Assembly: GCF_001677475.2 (NCBI RefSeq)
Contig: NZ_CP015229.1
Source of the DNA: Escherichia coli
GTDB lineage: Bacteria; Pseudomonadota; Gammaproteobacteria; Enterobacterales; Enterobacteriaceae
DNA: 64,000 nucleotides
Direction: 5' to 3' (one strand)
Shown here: piece after piece, positions 58,801-61,800 of the stretch
Position numbering within the stretch: the stretch's first letter is position 1
How the letters are laid out: the number at the start of each line of letters is the position of its first letter
Program-made: the position numbers

Positions 58801-61800
58801 AATGAACAATTTAAATCAGCATTCCTTAAACTCATTCAGCAAAACCACGAAGCAGTAAAATCCATTCAGGCTGAGCCGTATGGACACCTCACACCACCAA
58901 CTCTCGACATTATGTCCAGAATATTAACACCAGCCATGCTTCTACGTCTGAAAGACAATATAAATGACTGGTTAAACGAAGAATTAAACTACCTTGAATG
59001 TGAGTGGGATCATCATTACGCCAAATCACAAAAAGAACGCATCTTCCGTCGATTATCCGGCAACAGATAACGAGCCAGCTTATATACGTCCTTTAAGATA
59101 AGTCAGTCCTGGATGAAACCAGTAAGCCGGCACTTTTTTAAAGGGCGGATTATCAAAATCACGAAGAAGAGCCTCCCGCACAACTGCATCCTTGTCCGCA
59201 CCACTGGCCAGCGCTTCAATCTCAGCAGCTACCTGCAGATATCCCATGCAACGACCAATGCGCTTCATTAGTCCCTGCTTTTTATTGTTCTTCAGGTAAT
59301 CAATGGCAAATTCAATGAGCGCCTCACTGTGCTGGTGCGATGCTGGTGTTACTTTTCCATCTTCACGGATCGTGATATTCCAGTCATCGCTTGTCACAAT
59401 AAAAGATGGCCGATTATCCCCCCATTCCTGGTCTTTATCCGGTGCAGACGCAATAAAATAACGTTTATTGCCTTCCTCTCCGGCACTTTTAACTGTAATG
59501 GAGTACTTTTCTGACAATGCGGTCGGTAAAAACTTTTCCTGCAAAATCTTCGCAAAGGTCCTGCGAGCAATTTTGATGCAATCATCGTAAAACGCTGCTT
59601 CCTGCTCATCGCGGCGTTTTTTTTCATCTTCAGAAACCATCAGCACCGACAGTTTTTTATTCAGTTCAGTGATTTCATTTTCCAGGCAACTTATGCGCTG
59701 ATTCATTTCTTCATGGTTCATCGTCTACTCTCCCCGCGCCGCCTTACGCCGGTCTTCTTTAATTTTGAAATACAGGTTCGTCAGGTACGTCAGCAGACCA
59801 AACAGCAGACTCCCCAGCACGCCTATTGCCACCCACTGGGACGGAGAGACTTTGTCCAGCAGCTGCAGTAACCAGTATCCCGTCCCCACCGCTGACGTGG
59901 TGTATGACACACCTGTTGTGATTTTTTCCATCTGGTACATACCCCGTCTCCCGTTATCCGGAAGCTGACAACAATAAAAAAGCCACCCGTTAATTACTGA
60001 TGGCTCTGATGCATAAACGTCATCATTCCTGACCGTTATGATTGACAATGGTTATCATTTTTATATAAAAATACTCCCGATATGTGTTACATATCATTTC
60101 TCCACGGGGAATATCCCCACGCCAGCGTCAGACTCGTTTTCCCGTTCTCTTCTGTGCTGGCGTTTTTTTTATTATGATGTCGGTACATTTATCTCCAGCA
60201 CCAGGCTTTCAATCTCAACACCATACGCGGAATTTTTGGGCGTAAAAAATCCCCTCCGGTGAGGGGATTTGCTTATGTAAACATTTACACTGCTTACCTG
60301 CATGGTGCCGGGTGCCTCCCGGTGAATTCAGTATCAGCACCTGAATCCGCAATTATCCCATATACCTACTTGCTGATTGCCCCTCCGCACAGGGGGATTC
60401 ACCATGCGAGATTTTTTTAACAAATGCTCAGTCTGACAGGCAACTGTCAACTGACTGAATAGTGACACGGATTACACTTGTTACCCACATACCACGAATC
60501 AGGTTATTCTTCAGTCATTATTAAACTGCACTTCAGCAAATCCAGAGCCTGATTCACAGGTATTGGATTTGATTGTTACGGTCATTCCTGTTAACTGTGC
60601 ACTTTGTAACAACGGCTGCAAATTCCACCGGTTAGTCCAGTATTCTTTCCCGTCAACCTTTACAGTAAATGTGTTATCCCCATTATATTTGGAAAACTCA
60701 ATTTTACCTTTAGCACAATCCGCCGCCATTGCATTAACAGAAACCAATGCAAATAAAACCGCCATAAACATCTTCTTCATACTTAACTCCTTTCATTCAC
60801 CCGTTGTATATAATGACTGAGACTTTCTGTTCAGAAAGGCTGCTGCTGTATTACTTTCCCATAATGTATTGTTTATTTTTATAACTGGCCTGTCGCCACT
60901 TATCTGACATTTTGGTTGCATCTCTTCATTCACGTAGCGAACCGAACGCGCCCCCTGATGATGGCAATTCAGAATAACCGCTACAGTACCCAGTATTGCT
61001 GATATATTATTAAAGGATATTCTCCCCACTCTGACACCATCCTCTCCCCGATACTCCGGAAGCACATTGCTGATTCTCCCCCAGTTCAGAGTGAGGTCCA
61101 CGTCTTCCGGCGTCATCGTATAAACAGGAGCAGTTTCAGACAGTGCCAGACGAAATTCTCTCTGTATTTGCCTGAACCGTAAGGCTTCTGCTGTAACAGT
61201 GACAAAACGCAGAACTGCTCTGGATGCATCTCTGGTCATTGTATTACCACTGAACTCCATTAACGCCAGATATGATGAAACCAGTGAGTGACGACTGATT
61301 TGCATTCCGGAACGTTCCAGCGCTGCGACACGTTGCAGCGTGGTATAACTGCTGTCCGTTGTCATGGAAACAGTTGTCACACCGGGCACTGATATATGTG
61401 TAAAATCTGAAAAACGGTAGAAAGTATTTGTGGCCGTATTAACGAACCCGGCCACATATAAATTATTTTGCTCAATAATCAGACGAAGATGGTCAAAACG
61501 CGCCTCATAGATATCAAGCCCTCGGATATCCACAGAAATATAACTACCCGGTGGAGTATGATTAATAACAGATACCGATGTAGCCCCCTGAGATATATGC
61601 TCAAGAGGGGTCGATATTTCTGTCCGTATACTATTTAACGAAGATACATAAGTTTGTTGAGTCGAAAAGTCTATCGTAAATTCCCGGGAATAGGATACCG
61701 AAGAAAAGCCCAGTAACAGGCACAGTACCCATTTAAACAATATACACTTCATATACAGGTATTCCTTTTGGCTGAAGTAATCAGCACCAGACCCGGCGCA

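Follow-up and report, generated by a model that had tools for sequence, protein, structure and literature searches.

Organization of the stxB-holin spacer

The window analysed here, 64,000 nucleotides of Escherichia coli contig NZ_CP015229.1, carries a lambdoid prophage in which the Shiga toxin genes stxA and stxB are separated from the lysis genes by a short spacer, the subject of this study. The minus strand is the late-operon strand, as established from open reading frame (ORF) calls and from the RefSeq annotation of a 99.5% identical genome, and the order of genes along it is stxA, stxB, a class II holin gene, two ORFs annotated without a function, a lysozyme gene of the signal-arrest-release (SAR) type and Rz. 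The stxB-holin spacer occupies positions 59941-60510, exactly 570 bp (Table 1). Across the spacer the window shares 99.5% identity with the complete genome of E. coli MFDS1022581, whose toxin is Stx2g in the RefSeq annotation; the toxin of the window is therefore Stx2g and not Stx2a, the type against which an earlier note, made from the DNA sequence, had set the locus. The same note described a 570-bp spacer without a convincing ORF and without an esterase gene. The first description holds, the longest spacer ORFs being of 74, 53, 53, 44 and 43 amino acids with no Pfam match at E≤1; the second holds for an esterase ORF, but a 3′ remnant of the esterase gene had been overlooked, as had a plus-strand promoter and a third terminator, just before the holin gene. 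A coding potential of the spacer was rejected on the lack of Pfam matches.

It is very probable that the spacer is a small RNA (sRNA) locus of the kind common in lambdoid prophages where the late 'moron' site meets the lysis genes. The two hairpins singled out in the earlier note are, to judge from family models, homology and predicted folding, the 3′ ends of two convergent sRNA genes, one of the STnc100/EcOnc27 class on the stx strand and one of the EcOnc32 class, Esr41-like, on the opposite strand, which bears out the suggestion made there that prophage regulatory sRNAs might be involved. A promoter and terminator scan under strict consensus rules missed both hairpins and the plus-strand promoter, and was replaced by direct folding and motif location; the z-scores of folds given throughout are relative to shuffled sequence. 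The pattern of an intrinsic terminator, a G+C-rich stem-loop followed by a U-run, can be recognized at three sites of the spacer.

Table 1. Positions of the features of the stxB-holin spacer and its borders in the window
Feature	Position	Strand	Basis
Intrinsic terminator between phage tRNA genes and stxA	61811-61830	-	Free energy −14.8 kcal/mol, z −4.5, U6
stxA	60793-61752	-	ORF; RefSeq annotation of near-identical genome
stxB, Stx2g B subunit, upstream edge of spacer	60511-60780	-	ORF; RefSeq 'Shiga toxin Stx2g subunit B'
74-nt stretch from stxB stop to start of STnc100 match	60437-60510	-	Phage BLAST
STnc100-family sRNA gene, EcOnc27 class, related to PasD/EcOnc13	60436-60238	-	Rfam RF02076
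TGTTAAAAA, candidate extended −10	60414-60422	-	Suggested by PasD2 homology
STnc100-class intrinsic terminator (reverse-strand terminator of the earlier note)	60244-60270	-	Fold; aligns to RF02076 terminator stem
nanS-p (SASA-family sialate O-acetylesterase) 3′ remnant, last ~20 codons and stop	60172-60237	-	blastn, translation
EcOnc32-class sRNA gene, Esr41 paralogue, convergent with late operon	about 60079-60171	+	Rfam, blastn, fold, probe
Sigma-70-type promoter, predicted	60042-60071	+	Motif location, conservation
Third hairpin with U6, terminator-like	59976-60007	-	Fold, free energy −12.3 kcal/mol, z −4.59
Holin ribosome-binding site GGGAGACGGGG, then ATG	59952-59938	-	Motif location
Class II (S21-type) holin, 71 amino acids, MYQM dual-start motif, downstream edge of spacer	59725-59940	-	ORF; RefSeq

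Two predicted convergent small RNA genes

The minus-strand gene is matched by the Rfam STnc100 model (RF02076) over its whole length (model positions 1-206 of 206), scoring 147.6 bits where the gathering score is 47 (E 1e-33). The match starts 75 nt past the stxB stop codon in stx orientation, and the gene has the prophage site of the family as well, 3′ of a late moron gene on the late-operon strand. The 201-nt RNA is predicted to fold with a minimum free energy of −69.6 kcal/mol (z −3.08). Its terminator, rightly called strong in the earlier note, consists of a 10-bp stem between AAAUCCCCUC (60270-60261) and GAGGGGAUUU (60256-60247), closed by the loop ACCG and followed by a U6 tract ending at 60244 (free energy −15.6 kcal/mol, z −4.29).

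EcOnc27 of prophage Sp5 in O157 Sakai, named sRNA103 in EDL933, belongs to the same Rfam family, lies on the stx strand at the same +75 offset and likewise has an intrinsic terminator at its end. Over the first ~130 nt past stxB the two agree at 97% identity, the core CACCGGGAGGCACCCGGCACCAUGCAG is common to them, and over 60520-60298 the window is 82% identical to the Sp5 region 3′ of stxB. The two copies differ in the terminator sequence (AAAUCCCCUC... in the window, GGCCUCUC... in Sp5), in the central region, which is shorter in the window, and in the score, which reaches 207.7 bits in Sp5. They differ also in what follows: an esterase scar in the window, and in Sp5 the convergent AsxR gene (88.1 bits) and then a complete nanS-p. 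For the homologue EcOnc27, expression and association with Hfq were shown by cross-linking and analysis of cDNA (Hfq-CRAC) and by Northern blot (PMC4104026), with bands of ~235/247 nt, of which the 247-nt band is listed as destabilised (Table S2, PMC4104026). STnc100 has been located 75 nt 3′ of stx2 (PMC12370729), and variants predictive of haemolytic uraemic syndrome overlap EcOnc27/STnc100 (PMC12711010). The complement needed for the published 11-nt pairing of STnc100 (5-15) with stxB (PMC12370729) is absent from stxB of both the window and Sp5, although the paper may number the RNA differently.

A more distant likeness is found in PasD1/PasD2 (= EcOnc13), which share with the window RNA the 5′ domain GCAUGGUGAAUCC(C/U)CC...GGAGGGGC and a position after a moron gene, and which give sub-threshold STnc100 matches of 37.7-41.4 bits. 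PasD has been described as related to STnc100, with Esr41-like matches near it (bioRxiv 10.64898/2026.05.13.724894). The window lacks the 3′ half of PasD, which carries the seed UGUGAG and the terminator GGCUGCGCAUGGCGCGGCC, and a PasD identity of the sense RNA was ruled out on this ground.

Two placements of the 5′ end of the minus-strand RNA can be considered. The EcOnc27 sizes of 235/247 nt would put it within the 74-nt stretch that precedes the STnc100 match, 24-36 nt past stxB. This stretch is ~97% identical to Stx2a phages (phage BLAST, query 439-567, 96.9-97.7%) and holds two candidate −35 elements, TTGACA (60450-60445) and TTGCCT (60443-60438), which might be parts of a promoter for the sense sRNA; inspection of the window sequence revealed no strong sigma-70 promoter for the 235/247-nt form. 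The second placement comes from PasD2, whose 5′ end in RNA interaction by ligation and sequencing (RIL-seq; E2348/69 chromosome 741157) maps to ...ttattaaaaaatcaacc|GCATGGTGAATCC, a context homologous to ...tttgttaaaaaaatctc|GCATGGTGAATCC in the window. Were transcription to start as in PasD2, the window RNA would begin near 60407, at the G of GCAUGGUG, preceded by TTGCCT-18-TGTTAAAAA. The PasD2 5′ end corresponds to roughly position 31 of the Rfam STnc100 model (locus L006 1628-1832 compared with 60407-60436 of the window), and the first ~30 nt of the model (…UGUUAAAAAAAU…) may for that reason be promoter and not transcript.

These data also bear on whether the sense RNA has a promoter at all, or whether it derives purely from the stx 3′ untranslated region, cut by RNase E from the stx/late transcript. 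Such an origin would suit the EcOnc27 sizes, with 5′ ends 24-36 nt past the stxB stop and no good promoter there, and the fact that homology to non-stx prophages stops at 60468, which makes it unlikely that the long form has a conserved promoter upstream. Nevertheless, RIL-seq defines a 5′ end for the related PasD2 behind TTGACT-17-TTAAAA, PasD is abundant in uninduced enteropathogenic E. coli, RpoD reportedly binds at Salmonella STnc100 copies (PMC10794520) and the homologous TGTTAAAAA element is retained in the window. We consider a promoterless origin possible, with the balance of these observations tilted against it.

The predicted plus-strand RNA comprises, from 5′ to 3′, a 5′ hairpin, the single-stranded segment CAUUUCUCCAC, a GGGGA/UCCCC hairpin and a terminator with U8. 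It folds into these three hairpins with a minimum free energy of −32.6 kcal/mol (z −5.97), and the T8 hairpin pointed out in the earlier note is its terminator, with the stem at 60119-60162 and the T8 at 60163-60170 (free energy −18.9 kcal/mol, z −6.2). The holin-proximal ~300 bp (60230-59930, 301 bp) are 88% identical to Sp3 of Sakai and PP4 of E2348/69 (blastn), and the Northern probe used for EcOnc32, ATATTCCCCGTGGAGAAATGATATGTAACACACAT, is the reverse complement of 60081-60115 apart from a single A-for-C change four bases away from the probe 3′ end. By this homology to Sakai Sp3 901574-901662, probe site included, the gene belongs to the EcOnc32 group, and the identity to Sp3/PP4 together with the probe match identifies it as an EcOnc32 orthologue. 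In Northern blots EcOnc32 measures ~112 nt and EcOnc13 ~187 nt (Table S2, PMC4104026).

The identity to Sp3/PP4 extends over the gene and its promoter down to the holin, the seed region is identical, and in all of them EcOnc32 is convergent with the late operon and lies between the esterase scar and the holin. Small differences occur in the terminator stem and the U-tract. The sense partner is a full STnc100 gene in the window and PasD1/EcOnc13 in Sp3/PP4, and the gene upstream is stx2g in the former and a DUF3927 gene in the latter. The predicted promoter has a perfect −35 element, TTGACA (60042-60047), a spacer of 16-18 nt and an A/T-rich −10 region (TATAAA, ATAAAA or TAAAAA within 60064-60071) without the terminal T, for which reason the consensus scan did not list it. 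The −35 element with its flank (ATTGACAA) and the −10 region are kept in Sp3, PP4, GB089, STEC308 and genuine Esr41, which is consistent with a functional promoter. The Stx2 (e/i/l/k-type) prophage of STEC306-308 carries the spacer at 94% identity and has IS2 between stxA and stxB; the EcOnc32-like gene of STEC308 (locus L003, around 4124-4217) shows a C-to-A change inside the putative seed (CAUUUAUCCAC).

The relation with Esr41 (RF02676), encoded in SpLE1/OI-43, is one of paralogy. The Esr41 model covers 60081-60171 on the plus strand in its entirety (model positions 1-74) with 34.1 bits (E 1e-4); a genuine Esr41 scores 108.6 bits and the gathering score is 102, so that the window RNA is not a member of the family by the Rfam criterion. 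The alignment of the two comprises the −35 region, the 5′ hairpin, the linker CAUUU(U)CUCCA, the second hairpin and the terminator base, and it is on this ground that we regard EcOnc32 as a paralogue of Esr41. Both RNAs have three hairpins, with CAUUUCUCCAC, unpaired between hairpins 1 and 2 in the fold, aligning with CACAUUUUCUCCAU of Esr41, and in both the terminator base is GCC(A/G)GC...GCUGGC followed by a U-run. The window RNA, located in a lambdoid prophage and not in SpLE1, differs from Esr41 in the sequence of the 5′ hairpin and in a terminator loop of 26 nt against 7 nt. By eye only, two pairs of the 5′ hairpin are changed on both sides relative to Esr41, a hairpin that folding of the alignment did not recover; RNAalifold on four EcOnc32/Esr41 sequences yielded zero compensatory pairs, from few distinct sequences and with one reference offset by a few bases. 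Esr41 is known to repress LEE, the enterocyte effacement locus, and to activate motility. It represses chuA, cirA and bfr as well (PMC5286369). The single strand CAUUUCUCCAC, resembling an anti-Shine-Dalgarno sequence, would likely be the seed of the plus-strand RNA, as in Esr41.

Other sRNAs occupy the same convergent position upstream of the holin in further lambdoid prophages, namely AsxR/AgvB and PasA/PasC. PasA and PasC share with the window RNA the terminator base GCCAGC...GCUGGC, abutting the esterase stop codon. The 5′ (seed) region of the window RNA is unrelated to that of these sRNAs. It does not belong to AsxR/AgvB (RF02703/RF02702), which are marked by a conserved ~42-nt 3′ region; an AsxR/AgvB identity was ruled out, no match to the models being found in the spacer at E≤10. 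Tree et al. (2014) described convergent sRNAs 3′ of stx2B, with the same layout in Sp3, 4, 9, 10, 11, 15 and 17 (PMC4104026).

The distribution of these elements was surveyed in 5426 complete E. coli genomes. STnc100-like sequence is present in 2853 of them, at up to 12 places per genome, and an EcOnc32-like gene in 602. The whole spacer, at a coverage of at least 80%, was found in 25 genomes, in some of which it lies in non-stx prophages with TerB and DUF3927 genes in place of stx. No deposited phage genome in the phage collection covers at least 80% of the spacer.

Terminators and the coupling of toxin and lysis genes

Besides the terminators of the two sRNA genes, the spacer contains a third, terminator-like hairpin in the sense of the late operon, which ends 35 nt upstream of the holin start codon, just before the ribosome-binding site. 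It is kept in Sp3 and PP4, and in PP2/PP5 its place is taken by another hairpin with a U-run. A terminator-like hairpin before the holin thus recurs in unrelated sequence versions (Sp3/PP4/window as against PP2/PP5; loci L004, L006, L007 and L008). Table S2 of Tree et al. lists no Hfq-bound RNA at the pre-holin hairpin, and the literature consulted attributes no sRNA to it. Upstream of the toxin genes, a further intrinsic terminator separates the phage tRNA genes from stxA, so that stx, too, is preceded by a terminator requiring read-through by Q. A weak STnc100 match (19.8 bits) overlapping this terminator is probably spurious. The Q region is beyond the end of the window; in a related prophage a Q-family gene lies ~3.8 kb upstream of the holin.

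RNA polymerase modified by the lambdoid antiterminator Q is resistant to terminators. On induction, the Q-modified polymerase starting at pR′ would ignore the terminators described here, and stx and the lysis genes would stay coupled, as general knowledge of lambdoid phages and indirect evidence in the literature suggest. This has consequences for the proposal of the earlier note that, with a terminator after stxB, toxin and lysis transcription can be uncoupled, which would allow toxin to be made without lysis. The proposal has in its favour a strong sense terminator between stxB and holin and a second one just before the holin gene, at which a Q-independent stx transcript in an uninduced lysogen would be expected to stop. 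Against it, besides the terminator resistance of the Q-modified polymerase, in the Stx2a prophage Sp5 the STnc100 terminator homologous to this one is equally far from stxB and lies upstream of nanS-p, and nanS-p nonetheless rises with stx2a under phage-inducing conditions (PMC10462455). Since a gene behind the STnc100 terminator is still co-induced with stx in Stx2a phages, late transcription must cross this terminator. Moreover, the terminator belongs to a conserved family of sRNAs whose 2853 carrier genomes are mostly without stx, and so it did not evolve for stx. An uncoupling as a general property of the locus is therefore improbable; it is not supported for induced cells and can only apply to Q-independent transcription in uninduced lysogens.

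Taking these elements together, we propose the following model for the locus. Each stem-loop with its U-tract would be the 3′ end of a Hfq-type trans-acting sRNA made in the lysogen, as shown for the homologues; both sRNA genes appear intact and should give rise to such RNAs. Without Q, the three sense terminators (those between the tRNA genes and stxA, at the end of STnc100 and before the holin) would halt stray transcription before it reaches the lysis genes. This insulation could plausibly guard the lysogen from accidental expression of the holin.

Origin of the spacer and significance

Between the two sRNA genes the last ~20 codons of nanS-p remain as a scar of ~65 nt. Positions 60237-60156 match the 3′ ends of the esterase genes in PP2 and PP5 of E2348/69 at 87-88% identity along 82 bp (blastn, E 8e-24), and the minus-strand translation ends in ...KNSAYGVEIESLVLEINVPTS before the stop codon, compared with ...KNAAYGVEIESLVLEINAPAA and stop in the esterase. 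The intact NanS-p ORF of ~1.9 kb is missing between stxB and holin, where no ORF exceeds 74 amino acids. The stop codon of the esterase remnant borders immediately on the convergent sRNA's terminator, an arrangement also seen in PP5 (PasC) and PP2, and the left junction of the deletion follows at once on the STnc100 terminator's U-tract. The same esterase scar is present in Sp3 and PP4. The persistence of these codons between two sRNA genes indicates that the esterase gene was probably lost through deletion, the esterase-less layout deriving from an esterase-bearing one. The lack of nanS-p in Stx2e, Stx2f and Stx2g phages was reported in 2020 and 2023 (PMC7366253, PMC10462455). By sequence identity the spacer is a mosaic, of which the stxB-proximal part is Sp5-like, its 130 bp next to stxB being ~97% identical to Stx2a phages (phage BLAST), and the holin-proximal half is Sp3/PP4-like.

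The remnant raises the question of whether the whole spacer is a mere deletion scar, with the hairpins as inert leftovers of the esterase-bearing ancestor and the sRNA genes in decay. An STnc100 score 60 bits under that of Sp5, a shortened central region and one mismatch in the pre-holin hairpin relative to Sp3 would agree with such decay. On the other hand, both RNA genes match their models from end to end, with folds much more stable than those of shuffled sequences, the plus-strand promoter and seed are intact and identical to the GB089 copy, and the esterase-less layout is kept in Sp3/PP4, where EcOnc13/PasD1 and EcOnc32 were detected experimentally; decay is in consequence very unlikely. 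That the spacer encodes a small protein is scarcely credible, for although annotations cover the equivalent regions with 'hypothetical protein' ORFs, namely ECs_0817 and E2348C_RS28255 (399 bp), and with pseudo-ORFs, the window ORFs do not exceed 74 amino acids and lack Pfam matches, the local ORF is an incomplete pseudogene in RefSeq, and the annotated ORFs run antisense across two experimentally detected sRNAs. The antisense ORF annotations (L004 1767-2165, L008 1801-2199 and L001 4342-4476) are probably misannotations.

The reading of the spacer as an sRNA locus thus remains the preferred one, and several points weigh against it. Both RNAs are predictions from the prophage sequence. The STnc100 copy lies 60 bits below the Sp5 copy and has a shorter central part, and the plus-strand RNA reaches 34.1 bits against the Esr41 gathering score of 102, so that shared targets are not assured. 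The EcOnc27 sizes (24-36 nt after stxB) and the PasD2 homology (~60407) disagree on the start of the sense sRNA, and no strong sigma-70 consensus was seen before either candidate start. The insulating role given to the terminators is inferred.

The surroundings of the spacer add a few observations. Between holin and endolysin, on the minus strand at 59080-59721, there is a 213-amino-acid ORF of unassigned function that matches phrog_1085 (E 2e-101), and on the opposite strand, at 58702/58756-59070, an ORF of ~104-122 amino acids matching phrog_1853; neither of these two ORFs (58702-59721) has a Pfam family. The pair is present also in the GB089 non-stx prophage. A holin and an endolysin split by an insertion that includes an antisense gene are unusual. 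Upstream of stxA, at 61846-62096 on the minus strand, Rfam calls two tRNA genes where RefSeq has three, for Ile, 'OTHER' and Arg, in the near-identical genome; the Rfam tRNA model did not call the second of these in the window.

The locus is an ordinary, mosaic example of a well-described kind, most of which has been published for related phages. It has little significance alone, since earlier papers had already described convergent sRNA genes of the Hfq type 3′ of stx and had noted that Stx2g phages lack nanS-p. There is a modest gain for annotation, as named sRNA families can now be given for the two hairpins, in a region labelled by RefSeq as nothing but a pseudo 'hypothetical protein', and for history, as the esterase tail marks the esterase-less layout as a deletion derivative of the esterase-bearing one. 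Since the spacer joins a toxin-proximal Sp5-like part to a holin-proximal Sp3-like half, recombination at this junction can reassort the sRNAs that accompany a toxin subtype. In Stx2a phages the convergent sRNA AsxR is an anti-sRNA that de-represses the haem oxygenase gene chuS. We tentatively suggest, as a doubtful extrapolation from the linker shared with Esr41, that in the Stx2g phage an Esr41-type sRNA carrying the anti-Shine-Dalgarno linker of Esr41 replaces AsxR, so that phages specific to the two toxin subtypes would have opposite inputs into haem/iron uptake. If this were true, opposite riboregulation could add to the differences in host range or virulence between Stx2a and Stx2g strains.

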